This document shows, piece by piece, positions 1,322 to 44,820 of a DNA stretch of 46,395 nt. The position numbers and the translations under genes are program-made. Source of the stretch: Armatimonadota bacterium (GTDB lineage Bacteria; Armatimonadota; UBA5829; DTLH01). The DNA is taken from positions 1 to 46,395 of the forward strand of contig JBBRAE010000023.1 of NCBI GenBank assembly GCA_038207085.1, written 5' to 3'. The notes below the pieces were generated by a model. That model did not search any database, was not told the origin of the DNA, and saw nothing but the letters and a program-made list of their open reading frames with translations. Position 1 is the first letter of the stretch. Each line of letters starts with the position of its first letter.

Positions 1322-3307
1322 ATGTCACAAGTCGGACCGCCCTATCTTGGCGCGGCCTATTACCCCGAAGACTGGCCGCTCGAACAGATCGACGACGATA
1401 TCGCTCTTATGAAAGAGTCCGGCTGCAACGTCATGCGTGTGGCCGAGTTTGCATGGAGCCGCATGGAGCCCGAGGAAGGGCGCTACGACTTTGAGTGGCT
1501 GCATACCGTGGTCGACAAGCTCGGGGATGCCGCGATTGCGACTATTATGTGCACCCCGACCGCCACGCCGCCTCAGTGGCTAGTCGACCGCTACCCCGAA
1601 GTTCTCTATGTTCGCCGGGGGCAGCCGATGAAGCACGGCGGACGGCGTCACGCATGTCCCAACAGCCCGGTATATCGCGCTCACTGCGAGAGGATCGTCA
1701 CCAAGATGGCCGAGGAGTTTGGTCAGGACGATCGTATCATCGGCTGGCAGGTCGACAACGAGCTTTCTAGCCCAAATACCGGTGAGAGGGCGTGCACCTG
1801 TCCGGCGTGTATGCGCAAGTTCCAGGACGGGATGCGCGAGAAGTTCGAGACGATCGAGAAACTGAACGCCACCTGGGGCATGGACCTCTGGAGTCAGACC
1901 TACACCTCGTTTGGTCGGCTTCCCGGTCCGGACTGGGATATCTGGCACCACCACTCGCTTCTTGTCGCTTGGGAGGAGTTCATGTCTGACTCCTTTGTCG
2001 ACTTTTGCGGGGCTCAGGCCGACGTACTCCACAGACTCACAAATCACCCCGTGGGAACGGACATGATGCCGTTCCTGGGGCTGGATTACGGCGACATGCA
2101 CAAAAAACTTGACCTCGTGCAGTACAACCATTACAACTCGATGGAGAACCTTTGGGAGGTCGGGTTCTGGTTTGACATGATCCGGCCCTTGAAAGCCGCG
2201 CCGTTTTGGAACACCGAAACTGCGACCTGCTGGAACGGCTCGGGGGCGGCAAACGGCTACAAGGAACCGGGGTTCTGCGTGGTCAACTCATGGCTTCCGA
2301 TCGCGTTTGGCGGCGAGGCGAACCTCTACTGGCTGTGGCGTCAGCATTGGAGTGGTCAGGAACTGATGCACGGCGCGGTAGTCTCAAGCCAGGGGCGTCC
2401 GCTCCATATCATAGGCGAGGTGCAGGAAATTTCCCGGGGCTTCGAGGCCGCGGGCGACTTTCTCGGCTCCACAAGGCCCGTCAGCAACGGGCTCGGACTG
2501 CATTTTTCCCACAAGGCCGCCTGGATCTACATGCACCAGCCGATGGTAGCCGGGTTCAACTACCACAAGAAGCTCTCCGAGGATGTCTACCGGCCTCTCG
2601 CACAGGCGCAGCTTCGCCCCGACGTGCTTCAGCCCCACGTCGACCTCACATCCTACAAGGTGATAGTGAGCCCGTTTGTCGCGACGCTTGACGATGAGGA
2701 CCTGCGCGGCAGGCTCGAACGGTGGATCCGTGACGGCGGCACTTGGATCGCCGGGCCGCTCACCGACGTGCGCACCGAGCACGCGACCAAGTTCAAGGCG
2801 TCTCCCTTTGGGAGCCTGGAGGAGTGGGGCGGCGTCTACTGCACCTACGAGATTCCGGGTCAGCCCAGGGACTTTGGGATCAAGTGGGCGGACGGGCGCG
2901 AGTCTGAGGGCTCGGTCTGGTACGCGGCGTTTGAGCCCAAGGGCGCGGAAACACTCGCGAGCTACACCGAAGGGCCTATGGCCGGGCTAGCCGCGGTGAC
3001 CCGGCACAAGATGGGCAAGGGGCAGGTGATCCTCCTTGGCACGCTTCCGACCCCGGAGGACCTCGCGGGGTTTGTCACGCGGGTTGCAAACGAGGCCGGC
3101 GTCTCCCCTGTCGCGGAGGCTTCGGAGAATCTCTACGTCATCCCCCGGGAGGGAGAGGGTGGGCGCGGCTGCGTCGTAGTCGAGATCGAAAACAGGCCCG
3201 GCACGCTTGCGCTTCCCCATGAGGCGGTCGATCTGCTCACCGGCAAAACGCACACCGGGACGGTCGAGGTTGCTCCCTACTCCGTGATGGTGCTAAAGAC
3301 CGGCTAA
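1322..3307 (+). CDS. Beta-galactosidase, glycoside hydrolase family 42
   Basis: YYPEDW, AEFAWSRMEPEEGRYDF, WQVDNE, Cys cluster. Start placed at ATG 1322 after GGAGG (ORF is open from 1304). Confidence 0.9.
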   Translation: MSQVGPPYLGAAYYPEDWPLEQIDDDIALMKESGCNVMRVAEFAWSRMEPEEGRYDFEWLHTVVDKLGDAAIATIMCTPTATPPQWLVDRYPEVLYVRRGQPMKHGGRRHACPNSPVYRAHCERIVTKMAEEFGQDDRIIGWQVDNELSSPNTGERACTCPACMRKFQDGMREKFETIEKLNATWGMDLWSQTYTSFGRLPGPDWDIWHHHSLLVAWEEFMSDSFVDFCGAQADVLHRLTNHPVGTDMMPFLGLDYGDMHKKLDLVQYNHYNSMENLWEVGFWFDMIRPLKAAPFWNTETATCWNGSGAANGYKEPGFCVVNSWLPIAFGGEANLYWLWRQHWSGQELMHGAVVSSQGRPLHIIGEVQEISRGFEAAGDFLGSTRPVSNGLGLHFSHKAAWIYMHQPMVAGFNYHKKLSEDVYRPLAQAQLRPDVLQPHVDLTSYKVIVSPFVATLDDEDLRGRLERWIRDGGTWIAGPLTDVRTEHATKFKASPFGSLEEWGGVYCTYEIPGQPRDFGIKWADGRESEGSVWYAAFEPKGAETLASYTEGPMAGLAAVTRHKMGKGQVILLGTLPTPEDLAGFVTRVANEAGVSPVAEASENLYVIPREGEGGRGCVVVEIENRPGTLALPHEAVDLLTGKTHTGTVEVAPYSVMVLKTG

Positions 3308-3706: not shown

Positions 3707-3928
3707 TTGGCCAAAGACGATTACAAATGGGTTCGCAGAGCGGCATCGGCATCAAGCATTGGGCTTGTGCTCGTGTTCTCCATTGTGATCGGCTACTTTT
3801 TTGGCTCGTGGCTTGACTCCAAGTTCGGGACTACGCCCTGGCTGATGCTTTTGTTCACGTTGATGGGCATCGCCGCCGGGTTTATAGAGATGATCAAGCT
3901 TGCACTACAGCTTTCAAAAGATGAATAA
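3707..3928 (+). CDS. AtpZ/AtpI family small membrane protein
   Basis: 2 TM segments, GSWLDSKFGTTPWLML motif, first gene of the atp operon, GGAGG SD. Confidence 0.85.
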   Translation: MAKDDYKWVRRAASASSIGLVLVFSIVIGYFFGSWLDSKFGTTPWLMLLFTLMGIAAGFIEMIKLALQLSKDE

Positions 3929-4319
3929 ACAACTGGACATTGGTTTCATCAAGCGCGTCTATCGCATGTCGATCATATTCTGGCTGGTCTCCCTGCTATT
4001 TTGCTGGGGACTTAAGAGCTGGCAGGCAGCGGTCGGTGTGACGGTCGGGTTTGTTATTTCGGTCGGGTCGCTTATGATCCTTGAGCGGGTCGTGACCACG
4101 CTTTTTACGCCTGAGCAGGTATCAGGCGGAGGAAAGCCGGTCAAGCGGCTGATGATAGTAGCATTGCTCAAGTATTTTGTGATCGGCGTCCTCCTGTGGG
4201 TATCGCTGGCTGGTAAATATGCCGATCCTATAGGTATAGCGGTTGGCGTGAGTCTGCCCTATATCGTGATAATGCTGAAAACCCTCGGAATGGCGATTTC
4301 GCCGGACTCCGGGGCTTGA
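3921..4319 (+). CDS. atpI: ATP synthase subunit I-like membrane protein
   Basis: 4 TM segments, directly before atpB; ATG overlaps the preceding stop region. Confidence 0.75.
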   Translation: MNKQLDIGFIKRVYRMSIIFWLVSLLFCWGLKSWQAAVGVTVGFVISVGSLMILERVVTTLFTPEQVSGGGKPVKRLMIVALLKYFVIGVLLWVSLAGKYADPIGIAVGVSLPYIVIMLKTLGMAISPDSGA

Positions 4320-4386
4320 TAGGATCGTGCCTGAAGCTTCTCGCGGCGCAGACTGCGCGCCGCTGCCAGCTTCGTCACGATGGGAA

Positions 4387-4419
4387 CGTAAATGGCATAA
4401 AGCGCCATTTACGAAGGAG
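4387..4419 (+). promoter_or_regulatory. Hairpin + SD element before atpB (copy 1)
   Basis: CGTAAATGGC-ataaagc-GCCATTTACG then AAGGAG. Confidence 0.7.
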
Positions 4420-4425
4420 AATTAC

Positions 4426-5154
4426 TTGGAAGGACATCATGGGTCAGGTTTGGTGGAAGGCGCCGCGTGGTCGCTGACCTTCTATGCCGGGATAGTTATC
4501 GTGCTGCTCGTTGCTATGTCGATCCTTGCTACCCGCAGGCTTTCGAGAATCCCTGGGCCGCTTCAGAACGTTCTTGAGCTTGCGGTTTCGGGGCTCGGGA
4601 GTTTCATCGAAGGAATAGTAGGGCCTGGAAGCTCCAAGTATGTGCCGTTTATTGCGACACTTTTTCTGTATATTCTCGCCCTGAACCTGATCGGTGTCGT
4701 TCCTGGTTTCAGGTCCCCTACAAGCGGACTCAACACGACGATCGCCCTTGCTCTTTGTTCGTTCTTTTACGTGCAGTTCCAGGCGATCAAGGTGAATGGC
4801 CCCGTCAACTACATCAAGCATTTCTGGGGAGAGCCGTGGTGGCTGGGGTTCCTGATGTTCCCGATTCACATCATCGGCGAGCTTGCCAAGCCGTTGTCGC
4901 TCTCGATCCGACTATTTGGAAACGTCTTTGGCGAGGACAAGATCATCGTGATCTTGGCGGGAATGTCGCCCTTTATCGTCGCGCCGTGGCTTAAGTATGT
5001 TCCGATTCAGTTCCCGATGCTTGCCTTTGCAGTCTTTACGAGCTTTATTCAGGCTCTTATCTTTACCGTGCTTACGGCAGGGTATCTGACGGTTCTTATC
5101 ACTCACGAAAGCGAACACGAACATGAGGCCCCGGTCAGTGTGGGTTCTCACTAG
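4426..5154 (+). CDS. atpB: F0 subunit a
   Basis: KPLSLSIRLFGN with the conserved Arg; FIQALIF. TTG start chosen from the SD at 4414-4419. Confidence 0.95.
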   Translation: MEGHHGSGLVEGAAWSLTFYAGIVIVLLVAMSILATRRLSRIPGPLQNVLELAVSGLGSFIEGIVGPGSSKYVPFIATLFLYILALNLIGVVPGFRSPTSGLNTTIALALCSFFYVQFQAIKVNGPVNYIKHFWGEPWWLGFLMFPIHIIGELAKPLSLSIRLFGNVFGEDKIIVILAGMSPFIVAPWLKYVPIQFPMLAFAVFTSFIQALIFTVLTAGYLTVLITHESEHEHEAPVSVGSH

Positions 5155-5190
5155 TTCTGTGGTGAGGCCCTGCTTCACCACCCAGAGAAG

Positions 5191-5226
5191 GTAAATGGCA
5201 AAAAACGCCATTTACGAAGGAGGAGG
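5191..5226 (+). promoter_or_regulatory. Hairpin + SD element before atpE (copy 2)
   Basis: GTAAATGGC-aaaaaac-GCCATTTAC then GAAGGAGGAGG. Confidence 0.7.
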
Positions 5227-5232
5227 TTCCAA

Positions 5233-5499
5233 ATGCTTTATTTTGCGATGCTGGCAATTGCAGTGGGCCTGGGTCTGCCGATAGCTGTTATCGGTGCTGG
5301 ACTCGGTCAGGGAAAGGTCGGCGCGTCGGCTATGGAGGGCATCGCCAGGCAGCCTGAGGCTGCGGGTAGGATTCAGCTCGCGATGATGATCGCACTCGGA
5401 TTCATTGAGTCGCTCGTCATCTACGCGCTCTTGATGTTCTTCCTGCTTCAGGGCAAGCTGCCTGCAACAGAAGAAGTTCTGAAAGCCATCATGAAGTAA
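5233..5499 (+). CDS. atpE: F0 subunit c
   Basis: GAGLGQG, ARQPEA loop, FIESLVIY. Confidence 0.97.
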
Positions 5500-5572
5500 G
5501 TCAAGCCTTTGATCGGGGGTCTCCATACTTTGGGGATCCCCTCGAAAAACGGGCGGCTGGAGGTTCACAAAC

Positions 5573-6076
5573 GTGGGAATCCTTGAACAACTTGGCATAG
5601 TTCCCGAGTTGATCTTGATCAATATTGTAGGATTTATTCTGCTTCTTCTGCTATTGAAGAAGTTCCTGTATGGTCCTATCACTCAGATGCTTGCGTCTCG
5701 CAAGGATGACATCAGGTACACCTATGACGAGGCCGAGCGCCATCGCCAGGCGATGGAAGATATGAAGAAGGACTGGGAGCTGCGCATGCAGCAGATCGAG
5801 GCCGAGGCAAACGCCAAGATTCAGGCCGCCGTCAAGGAGGCCCAGTCCGTGCGCGACGGTCTTGTCGCCGAGGCTCGCGACAAAGCCGAAAATATCGTCC
5901 AGCGCGGCACAGACGAGCTTGGGCGCGAGAAGCAGAAGGTCGTCACGATGCTTCGTCAGGAGGTCGCAAACCTCGCAATCGGCGCGTCCGCCATGCTGCT
6001 TGGCCGCTCGATGGACGACGAAACGCACCGAAAGCTGATCGACGACTTTATTTCAAGCGCAGGTAAGGCACAGTGA
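5573..6076 (+). CDS. atpF: F0 subunit b
   Basis: N-terminal TM, KKFLYGPI, long coiled coil; operon position. Confidence 0.95.
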   Translation: MGILEQLGIVPELILINIVGFILLLLLLKKFLYGPITQMLASRKDDIRYTYDEAERHRQAMEDMKKDWELRMQQIEAEANAKIQAAVKEAQSVRDGLVAEARDKAENIVQRGTDELGREKQKVVTMLRQEVANLAIGASAMLLGRSMDDETHRKLIDDFISSAGKAQ

Positions 6077-6612
6077 TAGATAGGCGCATAGTCAGGCGTT
6101 ACGCGGCGGCGCTTTTCCAGACCGCACTTCGAGAAGACGTAATCGACCTTGTGGAAAGCGACCTTGGGCTTGTGAGCTACACGTTCGAGAGCTCTCCCGC
6201 GCTTGCCGAGGCCGTCGGCTCGCCTCTTATTCCGGCTAACAAGAAGAAAGAGATACTCCAGAGCATCTTCAGTGAGAAGATCCACGAAGTGACGCTCCAC
6301 TATCTCTATCTTGCGATCGACAACCGCCGCGAAGGGGTGATCTCCGAGACCGAGCGCGAGTATATCGAGCTCGCAAACGAGGCCCGCGGGATTGTGACAG
6401 CCGAGGTGAAAGCCGCGGTCGAACTTACCGAAGACGAGAGAAGTCGCCTGCGCGCAAAGCTTTCCAAGCAGACAGGCAAAGCAGTCACCCTGAACATCAC
6501 GATCGATCCCTCGATCATAGGCGGCCTTGTAGTCCGAATCGGCGACACCGTTATGGACGGCAGCCTCAAGGGGCACCTGAACAGAATTAAGGACGAGTTT
6601 TTGGGGATATGA
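6073..6612 (+). CDS. atpH: F1 subunit delta
   Basis: RRYAAALF, DPSIIGGLVVRIGDTVMDGS. Confidence 0.95.
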   Translation: MIDRRIVRRYAAALFQTALREDVIDLVESDLGLVSYTFESSPALAEAVGSPLIPANKKKEILQSIFSEKIHEVTLHYLYLAIDNRREGVISETEREYIELANEARGIVTAEVKAAVELTEDERSRLRAKLSKQTGKAVTLNITIDPSIIGGLVVRIGDTVMDGSLKGHLNRIKDEFLGI

Positions 6613-6620
6613 TCCCTGTG

Positions 6621-6681
6621 GTTGGGGCTAGGGGATAGGGGTTGGTTTTTGCTAACCCCCAGCCCCCAACCCCTAACCCCC
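6621..6681. repeat. Inverted heptamer tandem repeat (STRR-like) between atpH and atpA
   Basis: GGGGCTA GGGGATA GGGGTTG (6624-6644) facing TAACCCC CAGCCCC CAACCCC TAACCCC (6653-6680). Confidence 0.85.
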
Positions 6682-6698
6682 GATTGTAGGAGCAAACA

Positions 6699-8219
6699 AT
6701 GGCAGTCAATATACGACCTGAAGAGGTAACAGATATCCTCGAAAAGCAGCTCGCGGGCTACACCAAAGAGGTCCACGAGGTCGGCGTCGGGACCGTGCTC
6801 CAGGTGGGAGACGGCATCGCCCGTATTTACGGCCTTGAGGATGTTATGGCAAGTGAGCTCGTCGAGTTCCCTGAAGGCACGATGGGAATGGTCCTGAACC
6901 TTGAAGAGGACAACGTCGGCGTCGTTATCATGGGAGCGACCGAGGGCATCAAAGAGGGCGACACGGTCAAACGGACCGGGCGCATCATCGACGTTCCCGT
7001 GGGCGAAGCGCTCCTCGGACGCGTCGTAAATGCACTCGGCGAGCCGATCGATAACAAAGGCCCGATCGTCACCGACAAGCGCAGGCTAGTCGAGACCAAG
7101 GCCCCCGGCGTCGTCGAGCGCCAGCCGGTGAACCAGTCGCTGGCGACCGGCTTGAAGGCCATCGACTCGATGATCCCGATCGGACGCGGCCAGCGCGAGC
7201 TTATCATCGGCGACCGCCAGACCGGCAAGACCGCAATTGCGGTCGATACTGTGCTAAACCAGAAGGGCAAAGACGTTCAGTGCATCTACGTCGCGATCGG
7301 CCAGAAGCTCTCCACAGTTGCTGCAATCGTTGAAGTGCTCGAAAAGCACGGCGCTATGGAGTATACGACGATCGTCTGCGCGACCGCGGGCGAGAACGCC
7401 GCGCTTCAGTATATCGCCCCTTACTCGGGTTGCGCGATGGGCGAGTATTTCCGCGACAACGGCAAGCACGCTCTTGTGATCTACGATGACCTTTCCAAGC
7501 ACGCGCAGGCCTACAGGCAGGTATCGCTCCTGCTCAGGCGTCCGCCGGGCCGCGAGGCTTATCCCGGAGATATTTTCTACCTGCACGCCCGACTCCTGGA
7601 GCGCGCGGCAAAGCTTTCCGACGACCTCGGGGCAGGGAGCCTTACAGCGCTTCCGATCATCGAGACTCAGGCCGGTGACGTTTCGGCGTATATTCCGACC
7701 AACGTCATCTCGATCACAGACGGTCAGATCTATCTTGAAAGCGACCTTTTCTATTCAGGAATCCGCCCGGCTGTCAACGTCGGCGTGTCGGTTTCCCGCG
7801 TAGGCTCCAAGGCCCAGACCAAGGCTATGAAGAAGGTCGCCGGTCAGCTCAAGCTCGACCTTGCGCGCTATTGGGAGCTTCAAGCGTTCGCTCAATTTGC
7901 GACCGACCTCGACAAGTTCACCCAGGCGCAGCTGAACCGTGGCTCCAAGATCGTCGAGGTACTGAAGCAGCCACAGTACAGCCCGATGGCCATGTCCGAT
8001 CAGGTCATGATCATCTACGTCGCGACCCACGGCTACTTGGACGACATCGACCAGAGTCGGATCAAGGCGTTCGAGACCGGGTTATACAAGTTCATGGAAG
8101 ATCGTTACGCCGTAATCGGCCACAAGATCGAAAGCACCGGCCAGTTCGACGACGAAACCGAAGCCGCGTTCGCGAAAGCGACTGCGGAGTACAAGGCGGA
8201 GTTCGTCGCCGGGAAGTAG
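6699..8219 (+). CDS. atpA: F1 subunit alpha
   Basis: GDRQTGKT Walker [11 protein letters not shown]. Confidence 0.99.
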
Positions 8220-8942: not shown

Positions 8943-9799
8943 ATGGCAAGCATGCGCGATATTCGGCGTCGTATTGGCGTCGTCAAAAACATACAGCAGA
9001 TCACCAACGCGATGAAGATGGTCGCGGCGGCGCGGCTTCGTCGCGCCCAGGAACGCGCTGAGACGGCCCGGCCTTACGCCGACAAGATGATGTCGATGCT
9101 CGAAAGCCTTTCCCGCGCCGCGGGACAGATCGAGCACCCGCTCCTTGAGGTTCGCCCTGAGGAGAGGATCGCCGTTATCATAATCGGAGCCGAGCGCGGC
9201 CTTGCGGGCAGCTACAACCCGAACCTTATGCGCTCTGCGATGGAGCTGCTCTCCGGGCGCGACCCTGAGTCGGTGAAGCTCCTGATTTTTGGCCGCAGGG
9301 CCGAGGGGTTTTTCAAGCGCAAGCCCTACGAGATCGTTATGACAAGCGCACTTCCGGCGACGAACCTGCAGTTCTCGGACGTTCAGCCCGCCGCGGTCAG
9401 GGTGCGTGAAATGTTCTCCCGTGGCGAGGTGGACGCGGTCTACGTCGTCTACGCGAAGTTCATCAACGCAGCCGTCCAGAGGCCTACGGCGCTCAAACTC
9501 TTGCCGATCACCCCGCCTGATACAGCCGAAGAGACCGGCAGCGTGGAGTATCTGTTCGAGCCGGATGCAAATCACTTGCTTGGCAGACTCCTGCCCCGCT
9601 ACGTCGACACTCAGGTGTTCCGCGCGGCGGTCGAGGCGATGGCAAGCGAGTTCGGCGCGCGAATGACCGCGATGACCTCGGCGACCAACAACGCTTCAGA
9701 AGTCATCGACACCCTTACTCTGTCATATAACAAAGCCCGGCAGACGACGATTACGAAAGAACTCTTGGAGATCGTCGGCGGAGCGGAAGCGCTCAGATA

Positions 9800-9800
<1 letters not shown>
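8943..9800 (+). CDS. atpG: F1 subunit gamma
   Basis: QITNAMKMVAAARL, RGLAGSYN, RQTTITKEL. Confidence 0.98.
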
Positions 9801-11635
<1,835 letters not shown>

Positions 11636-13065: not shown

Positions 13066-14529
13066 TTGAAGCAAAGAAAGCTCCTGCTCCCGATTTTCGC
13101 GGTCGTGTTGACGCTCGTTGCGTCGCTTGTCGCCGGCGCATCCCAAAAGCAGCCAACACCCACTTGGATGGGCATCTATATGTCCGGGCAGAAGATGGGT
13201 TATATGAGTCTTGTGGTCGCCAAGGACAAATACCGAGGTCGCGATGCCAACCGGATCGAAAGCTTTGTGCGCACCAAGCTTGTGCTGATGCGGGTAAACG
13301 TCCAGCAGGAGATTAGAACGACCACCTTCACCGACGAGCGATATTCGCCCTTCTTCGAAACCTTCGAGACATCCTCCGGCGGGCGAAAGACGACCGTCGA
13401 GGCGACTTTTACCGCAAAAGATGTTCGCTGCCGGGTGATAACCGACAGCAGCACCTCAAGCAAGGTCGTTCCGATCCCTGATGGCACGAGCCTGATCGGT
13501 GACTCGATGTATGCGCTGGGCGCAGAACGGCTAAAGGTCGGCCAGAAGGCAAGGATGGCCTACTTCAACCCGCTCGCCCTTTCAGTCGACCCGGTCGACG
13601 TCGAAGTGATGCGCGAGGAGCAGATCGAGATCAACGGCCGCAAATACGACACGTTTGTAGTGCGAAACACCACCCCGACCGGTGACATAATGGCCTGGCA
13701 GAAGGCCGACGGCTCGCTCGTGAAGACCGAAGCGCTCCTTGGGGTGACGATGCAGATTGAAACCGAAGCCGAGGCAAAAGCCGGGGTCGACTCTAACTAC
13801 GTCCCGCCGACAGATCTGGCCGTTGTGACCTCGGTCAGGGCAAATATAGACATCCCCAAGCCCCGCGTCACCCGCAAGCTTACGGTCAAGCTCATTGGCA
13901 AAATCGACACCAGGATGGCGATATCCGACGGCTGGCAGACGGTGACCTGGCTCGACCCGGCGGAAGGCAAATCGGTCGCGCAGTTCAAGATCGAGTCAAA
14001 GCCGTTTGTGCTGGGGGACTCGCTCCAGTTTCCGATCACGGCTCCCGAGCTTGCGCCTTACCTAAGAGCGACGCCTTACCTCGATGTCGACTCTCCTGAG
14101 ATAATGGCCAAGGCCGCGGAGATCGTCGGCGTCGACAAGTCGGCTTACTCGGCGGCGCTGAAGATTCGCGCATGGGTGTCGGACAATATGAAGCCGCGGG
14201 CCGATATGGGGGTCGTCCGCCCCGCAGCCGACGTTTTGAAAGAGAAGTCCGGCGTTTGCAGGGATTACGCGGTGCTTTTCGCCTCGCTTGCCCGGGCCTC
14301 GGGTGTTCCGACCAAAGTGATCGCGGGCCTCGTCTACATCAACGGCGGGTTCTACTACCACGCATGGAACGAGTGCTACGTGGGCCGCTGGGTGGCTTTT
14401 GACGCGACGCTTGGCCGGGATTTCGTCGATGCGACCCACATCAAGCTCGCAGAAGGCGATGCAACCAACATGTTCGACCTTGCGACGGTATTTGGAAGCT
14501 TAAAAGCTGATATAATAGATTTTAGATAG
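13066..14529 (+). CDS. Secreted transglutaminase-like domain protein
   Basis: Signal peptide; Cys-His-Asp triad motifs GVCRDYA, HAWNE, FDAT. Confidence 0.85.
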   Translation: MKQRKLLLPIFAVVLTLVASLVAGASQKQPTPTWMGIYMSGQKMGYMSLVVAKDKYRGRDANRIESFVRTKLVLMRVNVQQEIRTTTFTDERYSPFFETFETSSGGRKTTVEATFTAKDVRCRVITDSSTSSKVVPIPDGTSLIGDSMYALGAERLKVGQKARMAYFNPLALSVDPVDVEVMREEQIEINGRKYDTFVVRNTTPTGDIMAWQKADGSLVKTEALLGVTMQIETEAEAKAGVDSNYVPPTDLAVVTSVRANIDIPKPRVTRKLTVKLIGKIDTRMAISDGWQTVTWLDPAEGKSVAQFKIESKPFVLGDSLQFPITAPELAPYLRATPYLDVDSPEIMAKAAEIVGVDKSAYSAALKIRAWVSDNMKPRADMGVVRPAADVLKEKSGVCRDYAVLFASLARASGVPTKVIAGLVYINGGFYYHAWNECYVGRWVAFDATLGRDFVDATHIKLAEGDATNMFDLATVFGSLKADIIDFR

Positions 14530-14601
14530 CCTTTAGCTTTTAGCAATTAGCAGTTAGCTTGCCTGCTCATCCCGACTGCTAATGGCTAAAAGCTAACAGC
14601 T
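14524..14601. repeat. Gene-less inverted GCTAANN heptamer element
   Basis: CTTTAGC TTTTAGC AATTAGC AGTTAGC, 19-nt spacer, GCTAATG GCTAAAA GCTAACA. Confidence 0.9.
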
Positions 14602-14616
14602 TAAAGGAATTTAATT

Positions 14617-18387: not shown

Positions 18388-19734
18388 ATGATGCTCCTTG
18401 GAACTCAAAAGATTAACTCAGCGGGACACCTGGAGATCGGCGGCTGCGATACGATCGAGCTTGCCGAGCAGTTTGGAACGCCGCTTTATGTGATGGATGA
18501 AGACTATATCCGTGGCAACTGCAGGCGCTTTCTAAAGGCGTTTCGCGAGGGCTACGGCGACGCCGAAGTCGCGTTTGCGGGGAAAGCTTTTATCACCGCC
18601 GCGATGTGCCGCATCGCCGACAGCGAGGGGCTTTATCTGGACGTTGCCTCCGCCGGTGAGCTTCATACCGCGCGTGTCGCCGGGTTCCCGATGGAGAAGA
18701 TCGTATTCCACGGCAGCAACAAGAGCGTCGACGAGCTTCAGATGGCGATTGACCAGGGCGTTGGCCGGGTGCAGGTCGACAACTTCCTTGAGCTTGCCAG
18801 GCTTGACGAGCTCGCCCGCGCCTCCAAAAAGCGCATCGGCGTGATGCTTCGGCTGACACCGGGCATCGACCCTCACACCCACAGGCTTATTCGCACCGGA
18901 CAGGAAGACACCAAGTTCGGGTTCAACGTCAAGGACGGCTCCGCGATGGAGGCGGTTCGCCAGGCGCTCGAGTGCACCAATATCGAGATCAGGGGCCTGC
19001 ACTGCCACGTCGGCAGCCAGCTCTTTGAGACAAGCGCGCACGAGCAGGCGATCAAGATTATGGTCACGTTTATGCAGGACGCCAAGGACGAGCTCGGCTA
19101 CCAGTGCGGCGAGCTGAACCTGGGCGGAGGGCTCGGCATCAGATACATATCTAGCCACAAGCCCCCGACCATCGAAGAGTTTGCCGAGCGGCTGATCTCC
19201 ACGGTCAAAAAAGAGATCGCCAAGCACAAGATCGCTTCCCCCAAGCTCTTTGTCGAGCCGGGGCGTTCGATCGTGGGCGAAGCCGGAACGACCCTTTACA
19301 AGATCGGCGCGATCAAGGACGTTCACATCAAAGAGGATCCAGGCGTGCGCAGGTATGTCTCGGTCGACGGAGGCCTCTCAGACAACCCGCGTCCCGCGCT
19401 CTATGAGGCCGTCTACGAGTCAGTTGTCGCCAACCGTCCTGAGGCGCAAGCCGACACGCTTGTGACGATTGTCGGCAAGCACTGCGAGACCGACACCCTT
19501 ATCACTGACACTATGATTGCCAACCCCTCCGCAGGGGATATACTCGCCGTATACTCGACCGGCGCATACAACTACGCGATGGCCTCGAACTACAACAGGC
19601 TCGCCCATCCCGCGGTTGTGCTCGTCTCGGACGGCGAGGCGGACGTGATCGTCCGCCGTGAAACTATTGAAGACCTGGTAAGCCATGACGAGATACCCGC
19701 ACGGCTTGGTGGGCAAGTGGAATTGAGGAAATAA
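18388..19734 (+). CDS. lysA: Diaminopimelate decarboxylase
   Basis: FGTPLYV, AGKAF (PLP Lys), HVGSQ, EPGRSIV, HCETD, MASNYN. Confidence 0.96.
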   Translation: MMLLGTQKINSAGHLEIGGCDTIELAEQFGTPLYVMDEDYIRGNCRRFLKAFREGYGDAEVAFAGKAFITAAMCRIADSEGLYLDVASAGELHTARVAGFPMEKIVFHGSNKSVDELQMAIDQGVGRVQVDNFLELARLDELARASKKRIGVMLRLTPGIDPHTHRLIRTGQEDTKFGFNVKDGSAMEAVRQALECTNIEIRGLHCHVGSQLFETSAHEQAIKIMVTFMQDAKDELGYQCGELNLGGGLGIRYISSHKPPTIEEFAERLISTVKKEIAKHKIASPKLFVEPGRSIVGEAGTTLYKIGAIKDVHIKEDPGVRRYVSVDGGLSDNPRPALYEAVYESVVANRPEAQADTLVTIVGKHCETDTLITDTMIANPSAGDILAVYSTGAYNYAMASNYNRLAHPAVVLVSDGEADVIVRRETIEDLVSHDEIPARLGGQVELRK

Positions 19735-20406: not shown

Positions 20407-21387
20407 ATGGCCAAACAGAGGATTCTAAGCGGTATGCAGCCTACGGGCAAGCTTCATCTCGGCAACTACGAGGGAGCGCTCAGCAACTGGGTGCGGCTTC
20501 AGGACGAATACGAATCGTTTTGCTTTATAGCCGACTGGCACTCTCTTACCACGCTTTTCGAGTCGCCGGGGCAGATCCAGGAGAACACCCGAAACGTTGC
20601 GATCGACTTTTTGGCAGCGGGGCTCGACCCCGAGAAGTGCGCGATCTTCGTGCAGTCGGCTGTAAAAGAGCACGCGGAGCTTCATCTCCTGCTTTCGATG
20701 ATCACCCCCGTTCCCTGGCTTGAGCGGGTGCCGACCTACAAAGAGAAGATAGACAACCTTCAGATCGAGAGTGCGGCCTACGGGTTGCTCGGCTACCCGG
20801 TGCTTCAGGCGGCTGATATTTTGATCTACAAAGCTAACGCGGTGCCGGTCGGGAAAGACCAGATTCCTCACCTAGAGCTTTCCCGCGAGATCTGTCGAAG
20901 GTTCAACTATCTCTACGGCGAGATTTTCCCTGAGCCCAAGGCGAAGCTGACCGAGTACCCGCTGATGCCCGGGCTCGACGGTCGCAAGATGAGCAAGAGC
21001 TACGACAACGCGATCTATCTCTCCGACACCGCCGAGGAGACCTTCCAGAAGGTGCGGAGCATGTTCACCGATCCATTGAAGATCTACAAAAAGGACCCCG
21101 GCCACCCGGATACCTGCCCGGTCTTCGCGCTGCACAACATCTACTCCAAGGGTGAGACCGAGGAGATATCGACGGTGTGCAAGGCGGGGGAGCTAGGCTG
21201 CGTAGACTGCAAAAAGCGGCTCACCGCGAACCTGAACGATACCCTCGCGCCGATCAGAGAGCGCAGAGTATACTTCCAGGAGAACCCCGACAAGCTCAAC
21301 GAGATTCTCGCCGCAGGATCGGATAAAGCCCGGGCCGTAGCCGCAGGGACGATGGCAGAAGTCCGCCACGCGATGAAGATTGGGTAG
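20407..21387 (+). CDS. trpS: Tryptophan--tRNA ligase
   Basis: SGMQPTGKLHLGNY, YPVLQAADIL, KMSKS. Confidence 0.98.
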   Translation: MAKQRILSGMQPTGKLHLGNYEGALSNWVRLQDEYESFCFIADWHSLTTLFESPGQIQENTRNVAIDFLAAGLDPEKCAIFVQSAVKEHAELHLLLSMITPVPWLERVPTYKEKIDNLQIESAAYGLLGYPVLQAADILIYKANAVPVGKDQIPHLELSREICRRFNYLYGEIFPEPKAKLTEYPLMPGLDGRKMSKSYDNAIYLSDTAEETFQKVRSMFTDPLKIYKKDPGHPDTCPVFALHNIYSKGETEEISTVCKAGELGCVDCKKRLTANLNDTLAPIRERRVYFQENPDKLNEILAAGSDKARAVAAGTMAEVRHAMKIG

Positions 21388-29970: not shown

Positions 29971-30073
29971 ACAAACAATAGAGTCGCCAAGCAGGCGGCG
30001 TTATTGCCTACTCTCCTCTGAAAATGGCGTTTTTTGTCATTTTCATCTCCCCCGGGATAAAAAAGGTGCTTGA

Positions 30074-30718
30074 ATGCTAAAAGGTGTGATTTTCGATATG
30101 GATGGGGTCCTCGTCGACTCCGAGCCGTTTATCTGTGATGCCGCGATTAAAATGTTCGCCGAGCACGGACTGACCGTGCAGCCCGAGGACTTTCTGACGT
30201 TTGTGGGCGCGGGCGAGGACCGCTACATTGGAGGCGTCGCCGAAAAATACGGCTATCCGCTCGTTCTTTCCAGGGACAAGGCCCGGACCTATGAGATCTA
30301 CGGCGAGATCGTGCAGGGGAAGCTTGAACCGCTCCGTGAAGTAGGGGAGTTCATCACAAAGTGTCGGGAGAAGGGTCTGAAGCTCGCTGTCGCCTCAAGC
30401 GCCGACATGGTCAAGATCAGGATCAACCTAAGGGAGATTGGTGTGCCCTTTGAGACCTTCGACGCGGTGCTAAGCGGCGACGACGTCACCCACAAAAAAC
30501 CCGACCCTGAAATCTTTCTGAAAGCCGCCCAAGAGCTCGGAATCGCCCCGGAAGAAAGCCTTGTAGTAGAGGACGCGATAAACGGTGTAGCCGCCGCCAA
30601 GTCCGCCGGCGCCAAGTGTCTGGGGATCACATCAAGCTTTACAGTGGACGATCTAAGAGCTGCCGACTGGCACGCCCCCGACCTCGCCGACGTCCCAGAA
30701 GCCGCAATCAACTGGTAG
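30074..30718 (+). CDS. HAD-superfamily phosphatase (beta-PGM-like)
   Basis: FDMDGVLVDS, KPDPEIF, VEDA..G. Confidence 0.92.
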   Translation: MLKGVIFDMDGVLVDSEPFICDAAIKMFAEHGLTVQPEDFLTFVGAGEDRYIGGVAEKYGYPLVLSRDKARTYEIYGEIVQGKLEPLREVGEFITKCREKGLKLAVASSADMVKIRINLREIGVPFETFDAVLSGDDVTHKKPDPEIFLKAAQELGIAPEESLVVEDAINGVAAAKSAGAKCLGITSSFTVDDLRAADWHAPDLADVPEAAINW

Positions 30719-42086: not shown

Positions 42087-43217
42087 TTGCCAGTCGACTC
42101 GACCCACTACGAAGTCCTCGGTGTGCCGAGGAACGCCGACGCCCAGGCGATCAAAAAGCGCTACAGGGAGCTTGTCCGCAAGCACCATCCCGACGTTCGC
42201 TCCGACAAGGCTGAGGCTGAAAAGCGTTTCGTAGAGATCATCGAGGCCTACAAGACGCTTGTCGATCCTCTGAAGCGAAGCGCATACGACGCGACTCTTC
42301 CTGAGGTGACGCGCCCCGTTTCGTCCTCAAACGCCCGTCCCGGCTCGGACCGAATCGACCCCGGCCAGCGCACCAGCCAAAGACGCCAGCCCGTCAGCCC
42401 CCGCGTTGCGCTTGCGATCAAAGAGGCCGAGCTTGCCTTTATCCGGCGCAAACTTACTTTGGCCGAGTCGCTCTGCAGGCGTGCGATATCTCTGGACCAA
42501 ACCTGCGCCCGGGCGCACGCGATCTTGGGCGACATCCACCGCGCGCACCGCAAGTACCAGCACGCGATCAACGAGTATACGCTCGCGGTTCAGTTCGACC
42601 CCGCCGACGCGGCAAGCCGGGAAAAGATGGAGAAGCTGATCGAGCGGATAAACCCGGTGCGCTTCTCATTTGAGTCGTCCGACGGCAAAGTCCCACCGCT
42701 GGTCGTCGCCCTGCACCTGATGGGCTGGGCGATGGTCGTATTCATGCTGTTTCTGGTCTACATCTACCCGGGCAAGCCCGTCACGCTCTTTCGTCAGATG
42801 AACGCGCCGTTTGTTTCGAGCTGGAGTTGGAACCTGATTATGCTGCTCCTCGGCGACGGCGCGCTTGCGGGCTTTTTGCTCGGCTCAAGCGGGATCGTGA
42901 ACCACCCCGACGAGGAGTTGATCTTCGAGTCCGGCGCGCACAGCAGGACGTTTCTGCCGACGGGGTTATTGCTCCTTGTCTTCGGCCCGTTCTTCTTTCT
43001 AGGCGTCTCGATACTTTACACGGTGCTCGCGACGCTCCAGGACGCCTTCTCTCGCTCGATCGTGATTGTGATCGCGGTAGTGATGGGAATCGCCTTTTTC
43101 GCAAGCCTGCTATATACCGCGGCGCCGATGTCGGTTATAATACTTGGCGGAAACGTCGTGTGGGTAGGCCTGGTAATCGGCTGGTACCTAGGTGCGATGT
43201 TCCAGCCCGAGAAGTAA
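42087..43217 (+). CDS. J-domain protein with TPR region and multi-TM C-terminus
   Basis: HYEVLGV, HPD motif, TPR-like AHAILGDI..AINEY..AVQFDP, about 5-6 hydrophobic segments. Confidence 0.85.
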   Translation: MPVDSTHYEVLGVPRNADAQAIKKRYRELVRKHHPDVRSDKAEAEKRFVEIIEAYKTLVDPLKRSAYDATLPEVTRPVSSSNARPGSDRIDPGQRTSQRRQPVSPRVALAIKEAELAFIRRKLTLAESLCRRAISLDQTCARAHAILGDIHRAHRKYQHAINEYTLAVQFDPADAASREKMEKLIERINPVRFSFESSDGKVPPLVVALHLMGWAMVVFMLFLVYIYPGKPVTLFRQMNAPFVSSWSWNLIMLLLGDGALAGFLLGSSGIVNHPDEELIFESGAHSRTFLPTGLLLLVFGPFFFLGVSILYTVLATLQDAFSRSIVIVIAVVMGIAFFASLLYTAAPMSVIILGGNVVWVGLVIGWYLGAMFQPEK

Positions 43218-44025
43218 GTGTGATAGTGCGCGATATGTGTGATCGTGCGCGATATTCATCGCGCACGAAACAGAAGAAAGAGGACTTAAGTCCGGTTAAT
43301 CGATTTAAGCCGACTCACCGGGGCATCAAATGGGCCGTTTTAAGATAAGTGAAGACTGTTATCCATACTTTCTCACAAGCACAATCGTCAAATGGCTACC
43401 CGTGTTCGTTTCACCGGCGACGTGCGACATCGTTATCGACAGCTTGCAATACTGCAGAGACAAGAAGGGGCTACGGATACACGCGTACGTTATCATGCCA
43501 ACGCATCTGCATCTAGTGCTGTCGTCTGATTGCGGCTTGACGGACATTATCCGGGATTTCAAGCGACATACGGCGAGTCAGATAGTGAAAGAGTCTGAGC
43601 GGAGGCGTGACCCACCGTTTCAGAACGTTTTCAAGTTCTGTGGCAGGGACAACCGTCCGCCTACCGAGTCCAAAGTATGGCAGAATGGAAACCATCCCGA
43701 GATGATTATCAATGAGGACTTCTTTCGGCAAAAAACGGACTATATTCACAATAACCCGTTTCACAAAGGACTGATAACCGACCCACACTGGTGGACATAT
43801 TCCAGCGTCAGAGACTTCGAGGGCTCTGGAAGTGGGCCGCTCGCGATCGACTTATTGGAGTGGTGAGATTGCTCGCGCCTGCAAAGAAGCCGAGCGATTT
43901 CAATCCCGCAGTTTGGCAGTAGACCTTAGTCCGGCAGTTCAACTGCCTTTGCGTTCTTTTTCGTGCGCGATGAATATCGCGCACGATCGTACCTCGGTGC
44001 GATGTTCCAGCCCGAGAAGTAAGTG
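43184..44025 (+). mobile_element. RAYT element bounded by 30-bp inverted palindromic repeats and a 37-bp direct repeat
   Basis: Direct repeat 43184-43220 / 43989-44025 (1 mismatch); perfect inverted repeat 43241-43270 / 43959-43988. Confidence 0.88.
43330..43866 (+). CDS. REP-associated tyrosine transposase (RAYT / TnpA-REP, HUH Y1)
   Basis: YFLT, AYVIMPTHLHL, RDFKRHT, VWQ, DYIHNNP, WTYSS; appears intact. Confidence 0.92.
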   Translation: MGRFKISEDCYPYFLTSTIVKWLPVFVSPATCDIVIDSLQYCRDKKGLRIHAYVIMPTHLHLVLSSDCGLTDIIRDFKRHTASQIVKESERRRDPPFQNVFKFCGRDNRPPTESKVWQNGNHPEMIINEDFFRQKTDYIHNNPFHKGLITDPHWWTYSSVRDFEGSGSGPLAIDLLEW

Positions 44026-44034
44026 GAGGAAACC

Positions 44035-44820
44035 ATGATTTCAAGAGTAACAGCGCCAAAGCTCAGGGAGATGAAAGCCGCAAAGGAGAAGATCACCGTC
44101 CTGACGGCCTACGACTACCCCACGGGGAGGCTTCTTGACGAGGCGGGGATCGACGTCGCACTCGTCGGCGACTCGCTTGGGATGGTTGTCCTCGGCTACG
44201 AAAACACGCTTTCGGTGACGATGGAAGACATGCTCCACCACGCCTCCGCGGTCGTCCGTGGAGTAAAGCGCGCGCTTGTGGTGGCCGACATGCCGTTTAT
44301 GTCATACCAGGTGACGGTGGAGGACGCTGTCCGAAACGCGGGAAGATTTCTTCAGGAAACAGGAGTCCAGGCTGTGAAGCTTGAGGGCGGCAAGGCGATT
44401 GCCCCGACCGTCGAGCGCATAGTAAACCTCGGCATCCCGGTGATGGGCCACCTCGGCTTTACTCCACAGTCGACGCATCAGCTCGGCGGTGCGCGCGTGC
44501 AGGCCAAAGACGATGCCGCCGCGCTTCGGCTCCAGGAAGACGCCCGAGCGCTCCAGGACGCCGGAGCCTTCGCGGTCGTCCTCGAACTGGTCCCCGCAGA
44601 CCTAGCCGCTCGCGTCACCAAGGATCTCTCGATCCCGACTATCGGCATAGGCGCAGGCCCCGACTGCGACGGCCAGGTCCAAGTCGCCCACGATCTTCTC
44701 GGCCTCTACCCGGACTTTGTGCCAAGACACGCCAAGCAGTATGCGAACGTCTGGGAAAGTGTGATCGACGCCTACCGAGGCTATGTGCGTGAAGTGAAGT
44801 CGGGCGAGTTTCCCAAGTAG
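44035..44820 (+). CDS. panB: 3-methyl-2-oxobutanoate hydroxymethyltransferase
   Basis: LTAYD, LVGDSLG, VKLEGG, GIGAG..CDGQV. Confidence 0.97.
   Translation: MISRVTAPKLREMKAAKEKITVLTAYDYPTGRLLDEAGIDVALVGDSLGMVVLGYENTLSVTMEDMLHHASAVVRGVKRALVVADMPFMSYQVTVEDAVRNAGRFLQETGVQAVKLEGGKAIAPTVERIVNLGIPVMGHLGFTPQSTHQLGGARVQAKDDAAALRLQEDARALQDAGAFAVVLELVPADLAARVTKDLSIPTIGIGAGPDCDGQVQVAHDLLGLYPDFVPRHAKQYANVWESVIDAYRGYVREVKSGEFPK

Follow-up and report, generated by a model that had tools for sequence, protein, structure and literature searches.

How did the last codons of one gene come to stand on both sides of a transposase gene? The question is raised by a locus in contig JBBRAE010000023.1 of an Armatimonadota bacterium, which was analysed over its whole length of 46,395 nt (the window). 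There, a RAYT gene and its hairpin ends form a cassette of 768 bp (43221-43988) between a gene for a J-domain protein and panB, and a stretch of 37 nt that contains the end of the J gene is found on both sides of it. As judged from the sequence, the RAYT cassette is real and probably acquired, and it carries a long duplication of its flank. We lean, tentatively and with less than even confidence, to the view that the 37-nt repeat is a by-product of nicking by the RAYT and of DNA synthesis, and not a target-site duplication of fixed length.

The 37-nt repeat and the ends of the cassette

An earlier note on this DNA had described a duplicated J-gene end, perfect 30-bp inverted repeats that form hairpins with 4-nt loops and without a GTAG, and a right inverted repeat that directly adjoins the duplication. 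All of this was found again. The two copies of the direct repeat are identical at 36 of 37 positions (Table 1). Each has a single nucleotide ahead of the final 10 codons of the J gene and goes on through the stop codon (43215-43217 in copy 1) to 3 nt beyond it. The sole mismatch, at position 7, is CTA in copy 1 and CTC in copy 2 and is synonymous for leucine; CTA is a rare codon here (4 of the 131 leucine codons in four host genes). When the window was searched with up to 3 mismatches, the repeat was found at these two places only, and none of 100 shuffles reached two matches. Folding of the repeat itself gave no structure. The last base of copy 2 is the first G of the GGAGG of panB. Deletion of 43221-44025 leaves the J stop, 12 nt with the GGAGG and the panB ATG at 44035, so that the removal of the insert and one copy restores the stop, the Shine-Dalgarno sequence and the start codon on the sequence, as the note had stated. 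A similarity of the repeat to the hairpin arm was also considered and dropped: the best local alignment scored 13, a value that 399 of 2000 shuffles and 893 of the 2937 37-mers of the window also reached.

The cassette carries inverted arms of 35 nt, which are complementary at 34 of 35 positions and perfect over the first 30 nt. Each arm is a hairpin of a 10-nt stem, a 4-nt loop and a 10-nt stem, a pattern with two matches in the window against 0 expected. The hairpins fold at -15.9 and -14.9 kcal/mol, and none of 200 shuffles was equally stable. The 4 nt on their 5' sides are GTGT at the left arm and GTAC at the right arm (on the other strand), and the GTAG tag of RAYT groups 2 and 3 is absent. 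Beyond the two cassette copies and one half copy, no further copies of the hairpin were found in the 46,395 nt; one extra match to a 9-mer of the hairpin lies at 20637.

The two junctions of the cassette are not alike. On the right, the junction is exact, with the arm ending at 43988 and copy 2 starting at 43989. On the left, a spacer of 20 nt (43221-43240) separates copy 1 from the arm. This spacer contains the half copy of the hairpin (43222-43236), which pairs with 43974-43988 of the right arm over 15 nt at 93%. In such a fold-back, only T43221 would separate the base of the stem from the end of copy 1, and on the other side copy 2 would begin at once. The spacer is also included in a tandem duplication of 19 nt at the left arm (43215-43233 and 43234-43252, 89%), which we count in favour of the explanation proposed below.

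The transposase and the origin of the cassette

The identity of the 178-aa protein was tested with family models. The RAYT model NF047646 of NCBIfam (REP_Tyr_transpos) matched residues 6-158 with 100.4 bits against a cut-off of 80, whereas the IS200/IS605 model NF033573 stayed below its threshold (20.6 bits against 55) and Y1_Tnp of Pfam was barely over (23.2 against 23). The histidines H59 and H61 of the HUH motif and the catalytic tyrosine Y138 are invariant across 38 aligned homologues, 17 of which also share the length of 178 aa. By its family score and these invariant residues, the protein is an intact RAYT. Its HUH motif reads THLH, and the motifs WQ and YIHNNP are found at 117-118 and 138-143. 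The nearest RAYT homologue is 66% identical, and the best match among solved structures is a weak one to TnpA-REP of E. coli (4er8, E = 0.035).

The composition of the cassette is foreign to its surroundings. Its GC content is 0.50 and the GC content at third codon positions (GC3) of the RAYT gene is 0.62, compared with 0.59-0.62 and 0.74-0.78 in four host genes. Together with the absence of other hairpin copies in 46 kb and the restored junction between the J stop and the panB ribosome site, which the cassette interrupts, this supports an acquired cassette, and the intact RAYT claimed in the earlier note and its discrete cassette were both borne out. The J gene itself is whole, since its product ends level with 17 orthologues, in which G365, W366, Y367 and G369 are invariant; the nearest of the J orthologues in a collection of 5.8 billion protein clusters is 59% identical. 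Homologues of the J, panB, T2SS-F or YkuD proteins of the window were not found in the 83 loci compared. In the open reading frame (ORF) list and the Pfam scan, no integrase or recombinase was found between the repeats, the RAYT being the only ORF there with a family match. The window contains 0 tRNA genes and 0 Rfam matches. A scan of 42900-44300 for promoters and terminators gave nothing above shuffles (2 terminator-like sites against 1.4 expected).

Table 1. Features of the cassette and of the genes on either side (positions in the window)
Feature	Position	Strand	Remarks
J-domain/TPR membrane protein gene	42087..43217	+	ORF; Pfam DnaJ 79.7 bits; last 10 codons and stop inside repeat copy 1
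Direct repeat copy 1, 37 nt	43184..43220	+	continuous with the J gene
Spacer, 20 nt	43221..43240	+	half-hairpin copy 43222-43236
Left inverted-repeat arm	43241..43275	+	hairpin 43244-43267
RAYT gene (Y1 HUH transposase), 178 aa, intact by family score and invariant residues	43330..43866	+	ORF and family matches
Terminator-like hairpin within the cassette	43933..43947	+	weak consensus match only
Right inverted-repeat arm	43954..43988	+	hairpin 43962-43985; adjoins repeat copy 2
Direct repeat copy 2, 37 nt, orphan copy of the J gene end	43989..44025	+	
panB (3-methyl-2-oxobutanoate hydroxymethyltransferase)	44035..44820	+	Pfam PF02548 390 bits; NCBIfam TIGR00222 324.7 bits

A second cassette with a duplicated flank and two tandem duplications

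The earlier note had proposed to check other RAYT copies for long direct repeats. Relatives were taken from genome contigs, and the best 80 of at least 467 relatives (604 stretches) gave 79 loci at 33-47% identity, among which the genome of the window itself was not present. Three of the 79 were dropped for short flanks, and the flank comparison comprised 78 cassettes, namely that of the window and 77 others in 76 loci. A second pass used flanks of 800 nt, and a locus-wide self-comparison covered 84 sources with 896,833 nt. The usual picture among the relatives is that of a REPtron, with inverted hairpins on both sides, and their direct repeats are hairpin copies. A flank repeat other than the hairpins was absent from 75 of the 77 other cassettes. 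The check thus yielded one clear further case, and it also showed that most cassettes are without such repeats. In another locus (L075), about 100 nt containing the hairpin are present on both sides of the RAYT gene, which is ambiguous.

The sole independent second case among the 77 cassettes was found in a contig of a Chitinophagaceae metagenome-assembled genome (MAG), here called L043. It has the same anatomy as the window in an unrelated sequence, and the two RAYTs are only about 38% identical. A repeat of 125 nt (5745-5869 and 6594-6718, 116 of 125 identical) surrounds the cassette and takes in the final 37 codons of a gene for an M3 peptidase (4140-5858), together with its stop and 11 nt more. 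The RAYT gene (5977-6546) lies between hairpin arms at 5870-5918 and 6540-6588. Copy 1 of the repeat adjoins the left arm, and 5 nt lie between the right arm and copy 2. Six RAYTs that are 65-74% identical to the L043 RAYT are found in other gene contexts without a repeat at the ends, and short target duplications at the ends of these six cassettes were not seen by eye. The varied contexts without repeats indicate that the cassettes of this clade have moved and that the repeat is no constant companion of them.

Two further loci contain tandem duplications. In L012, a Desulfobaccales MAG, a unit of 286 nt is present in 2.0 copies at 1484-2054 (278 of 286 identical). In L082, a replicon of Salinivibrio kushneri, a unit of 121 nt is repeated at 2938-3275 (113 of 121 identical) and is followed by a third, decayed copy. 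In both, the unit consists of the 3' end of the RAYT gene itself and the downstream hairpin. When the four cases are read on the strand of the forward hairpin, a copy of the 3'-side flank, in our reading, borders in all four on the 5' edge of the hairpin element. How far the copied flank extends differs from case to case (37, 125, about 84 and about 222 nt). The tandem cases have copied the hairpin again together with the flank; in the window and in L043 the copying has passed over the entire cassette.

The coding differences between the repeat copies are synonymous in 6 of 8 cases (P = 0.02 under a uniform mutation model). In L043, 4 of 7 coding changes are GC-to-AT changes in the orphan copy, and the locus has 31% GC. 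The synonymous excess was considered as a sign of an allelic origin and is not relied on, as most of the changes are transitions at third positions that lead toward AT, in a locus that is itself rich in AT.

Several other repeat pairs were tried as flank duplications and rejected. A 39-nt pair in L031 surrounds an unrelated gene, and a 283-nt duplication in L057 lies 3 kb from the RAYT gene. For the pairs in L008, L016, L019, L054 and L069, coordinates and sequence were the only basis for judging them to be copies of hairpins or cassettes. In L020, an Armatimonadota MAG, the pair proved to be a second cassette. The complete cassette is at 5893-6590, and the second copy lies 0.7 kb downstream (7283-7510) and contains both hairpin doublets but, of the RAYT gene, only the final 100 nt or so, which makes it an internally deleted, non-autonomous copy. 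In L008, a repeat of 193 nt (92%, 3780-3972 and 4790-4981) reaches from the upstream hairpin about 97 nt into the RAYT ORF and is probably the mark of a second, partial cassette copy. A Planctomycetaceae MAG (L046) contains two RAYT genes (4040-4579 and 6001-6540) 1.4 kb apart among hairpin repeats. Nothing in the plasmid collection matched 43150-44060 at the DNA level; six plasmid records had protein matches, and among the four that were compared none showed a repeat of the window type, the S. kushneri replicon being the tandem case described above.

A proposed origin of the repeat by nicking, extension and strand transfer

The chemistry that such a duplication would need has been published for E. 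coli. Ton-Hoang et al. 2012 (PMC3333891) showed that TnpA-REP acts on single strands only, with a 5'-phosphotyrosine as intermediate; its demands on the sequence at the cut are small, and it can cleave both strands. A model for the amplification of BIMEs is given there in the legend of Fig. 7B: the cut provides a 3'-OH, which is extended by the host polymerase, and a second 3'-OH attacks the tyrosine-linked 5' phosphate, whereby a unit is added. With this model the structure in the window is possible without new chemistry.

The structure of the locus, the identity of the protein as a RAYT, the foreign composition and both the second cassette and the tandem duplications were observed; the enzymatic steps and their order are inferred. 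The 12 nt between the J stop and the panB start would have received a cassette of the REPtron or TIRtron type, which most likely arrived in single-stranded form. The RAYT would then nick one strand at the outer (5') edge of an arm and stay bound to the 5' end by its tyrosine, and the freed 3'-OH would be extended by a host polymerase. If the template lacked the cassette, as after a fresh insertion into one strand, or if the cassette was folded by its 35-nt arms, the polymerase would copy the far flank. Attack of the extended 3' end on the 5' end that carries the enzyme would then reseal the strand. The product would be flank copy, cassette and flank, with the new copy at the 5' edge of the hairpin and a length set by the extent of synthesis. 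Selection may then have kept products with a whole J gene and with a hairpin of about -15 kcal/mol placed 37 nt from the panB ribosome site.

This explanation is supported by the finding that only one junction per cassette case is exact, which in the window is that on the right side. The pairing of the spacer with the right arm, the second case in L043, the two tandem cases and the junction common to all four also speak for it, and a product of this sort is predicted by the published model. The rarity of the repeat fits a by-product better than an obligatory footprint, and together with the variable length (37 and 125 nt) it led us to read the repeat in this way and not as a target-site duplication of fixed length. 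The earlier note had claimed a recent insertion by an undescribed mechanism that generates a long duplication. The distinct cassette stood up to the analysis. A target duplication by a new mechanism was not established, since the lengths differ between the two cases, 75 of the 77 other cassettes have no such repeat and the published model suffices.

Several points weigh against nicking and extension as the source of the repeat. The enzymatic steps are all inferred, and the RAYT belongs to a subclass without a known cleavage site. The skipping of the cassette during extension is an added assumption, which is absent from the published model. There are two cases of the cassette type only, so the rule of the 5' edge could be a coincidence, and the ends of the cassettes are defined by their inverted repeats only. 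Most of the other cassettes may be old, and a duplication linked to insertion could have decayed in them. The order of events, with the insertion first and the duplication later or simultaneous, is not readable from one genome, and the structure is known from the assembled contig alone and not from reads.

Other explanations of the repeat

A true target-site duplication would arise if the RAYT, alone or with host enzymes, opened the two target strands by nicks 37 nt apart, the cassette was linked by its 5' ends to the 3'-OH ends of the target and the gaps were filled, the length varying with a low cleavage specificity. The repeat brackets the cassette, the removal of one copy restores the site, and a second case exists with 125 nt. 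The boundaries on the + strand are similar (TG/G at 43183/43184 and at 44025/44026), and the strand cleavage described for TnpA-REP, on both strands and with little sequence needed (PMC3333891), would allow such nicks. However, a classical transposon has one repeat length that adjoins both of its ends, whereas here one junction per case is exact and a spacer of 20 nt (window) or 5 nt (L043) lies at the other. The length is not fixed, the repeat is missing from 75 of 77 other cassettes, and the six relatives of the L043 cassette are without short or long end repeats elsewhere. In addition, a duplex of 37-125 bp would not be expected to separate without a helicase or a replication fork, and we regard this explanation as unlikely. 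Template switching or break repair without the RAYT would require that a nascent strand copied a cassette elsewhere and returned 37 nt upstream of its departure. The variable repeat length (37 and 125 nt) and the filler at one junction (20 and 5 nt) would be expected of such an event, and the stable hairpins at both ends could stall polymerases. It appears improbable to us, because there is no microhomology at the right junction of the window (GATC/GTAC against CTG/GTAC), no donor copy is known, and in two unrelated genomes the copied unit stops exactly where the arms do, a sign that the element has a defined end.

An origin in two steps could have passed through a tandem of flank and cassette from which one cassette was lost, or through two insertions 37 nt apart and a later unequal crossing-over inside the cassette. 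L012 and L082 do show tandem duplications of a gene end with a hairpin, and L020 contains an internally deleted second cassette. Yet two rare events with exact boundaries would be needed, no remnant of a second cassette is present to the right of copy 2, and one of the intermediates would truncate the J gene, which makes this course quite improbable. In an integration of the Campbell type, a circle with the cassette and a copy of the gene end would have recombined with the chromosomal gene end and left hybrid repeats. Both repeats span the 3' end and stop of a gene, as many att sites do, and the excess of synonymous differences (6 of 8) could be taken to point to an allelic copy. This excess is not robust, however, and is explained equally by a free, AT-biased decay of the orphan copy. 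The insert carries the RAYT as its only family match and no integrase or other recombinase, 37 nt is generally short for homologous recombination, and the two cases differ in the gene concerned and have RAYTs with only about 38% identity, so that we hold such an integration to be very improbable. An artefact of assembly could be suspected, as the window looks metagenome-derived and its proteins were found on one contig only. Against this, one base distinguishes the two repeats, the sequence across the junction of the right arm with copy 2 is unique and could not be made up by an assembler, and the analogue in L043, with 9 mismatches, comes from an unrelated assembly; an artefact is hardly to be credited.

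Other repeats in the window

Some further repeats were observed apart from the cassette. At 115-295, two inverted arms of 33 nt (94% complementary, 115 nt apart) each form a GC-rich hairpin. One arm of this doublet reads GTAG and then the hairpin, which is REPIN-like and of another family than the cassette hairpins; a looser pattern of it also matches 19638-19657. A conserved hairpin of about 30 nt is found at 4366-4419 and 5169-5222, directly before a GAAGGAG ribosome site, the copies lying upstream of the genes for ATP synthase subunits a (4327-5154) and c (5233-5499). At a distance of 25 kb, on the other strand, a third copy (30013-30042, -) precedes the ORF 30074-30718. Short GCTAA-rich direct and inverted repeats are clustered at 9792-10230 and 14528-14606. 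Between 45800 and 46395 the GC content falls to about 0.45 (window mean 0.58) and only short ORFs are present.

Significance of the duplicated flank

The background given in the earlier note agrees with the published work: IS200/IS605 elements make no flanking repeats (PMC3333891), and 'no evidence of tnpAREP mobility' is stated in PMC8266576. Flank duplications around RAYT or TIRYT genes did not turn up in full-text searches and are not mentioned in the passages of PMC2817692, PMC8266576, PMC3333891, PMC3116915, PMC6006769, PMC3686654 and PMC5581495 that were covered; supplements, which may hold cases, lay outside this scope. In the main text of PMC3733652, the terms 'direct repeat', 'duplication' and 'target site duplication' have 0 occurrences. 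Within this part of the literature, such a footprint in the flank is not previously known for this kind of transposase, and among the cassettes compared here it is recurrent but rare.

How REP hairpins and RAYT genes spread is an open question, and the duplicated flank may record the copying of DNA by a RAYT. The intact cassette looks freshly inserted, and the second cassette and the two tandem duplications share its junction rule. If this rule holds more widely, natural products would back the model of nicking, extension and strand transfer, and RAYT activity could duplicate parts of neighbouring genes. If it fails, the locus is a rare, well-documented insertion of a RAYT cassette. A wider proposal would be that RAYT and TIRYT cassettes move as units and that a polymerase-extended 3' end, in resolving the covalent 5' intermediate, leaves long flank duplications of variable length, of which the present ones would be the first natural footprint of a RAYT-catalysed insertion or amplification. 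At present we consider this proposal doubtful. Were the footprint reading true, RAYT activity could be detected, counted and dated in genomes by means of it, and the spread of REP-type hairpins could be tested directly.

Comparison with known systems

By its model score and the structure of its ends, the cassette is not a member of the IS200/IS605 family. Like IS608 and ISDra2 (PMC3333891), it encodes a Y1 HUH transposase and has hairpins close to its ends; chemistry on single strands by way of a 5'-phosphotyrosine and a connection with replication forks are likewise shared. These elements are described there as lacking terminal inverted repeats and flanking repeats and as using one strand only, whereas the cassette has both terminal inverted repeats and flanking direct repeats.

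The BIME model in the same source was proposed for REP units and not for gene ends or whole cassettes. L012 and L082 resemble its predicted product, a unit added beside a REP. The window and L043 differ from it in that the flank beyond the cassette has been copied and the cassette has not been copied again.

Among the Y1 subclasses listed by Quentin et al. 2018 (PMC6006769), 2.6 and 2.4 (groups 5 and 4 of Bertels) come near to the RAYT, with a length of 179 aa compared with 178 aa here. Their motifs YIH[QN]NP (2.6) and YIxNNP (2.4) fit the YIHNNP of the cassette, an assignment made by motifs only, and subclass 2.6 genes are described as flanked by 'atypical secondary structures'. In contrast to these subclasses, the HUH motif is preceded here by T and not by N, and the host is Armatimonadota-like and not a member of the Bacteroidetes.

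The REPtron, in the E. coli K-12 model a tnpA-REP/RAYT gene between inverted REP/BIME hairpins, likewise has a Y1 HUH gene between inverted palindromic hairpins; the cassette differs from it by lacking the GTAG tag and dispersed hairpin copies in 46 kb. TIRtrons with their TIRYT genes (Di Nocera et al. 2013, PMC3733652) consist of a RAYT-like gene with terminal inverted repeats, some of them self-complementary, in genomes without GTAG REP families. The motif GGGGWSAS of many TIRtron repeats is absent from the arms of the cassette. In conclusion, the anatomy of the cassette, with a RAYT gene between inverted repeats that lack GTAG, is closest to the TIRtron variant.

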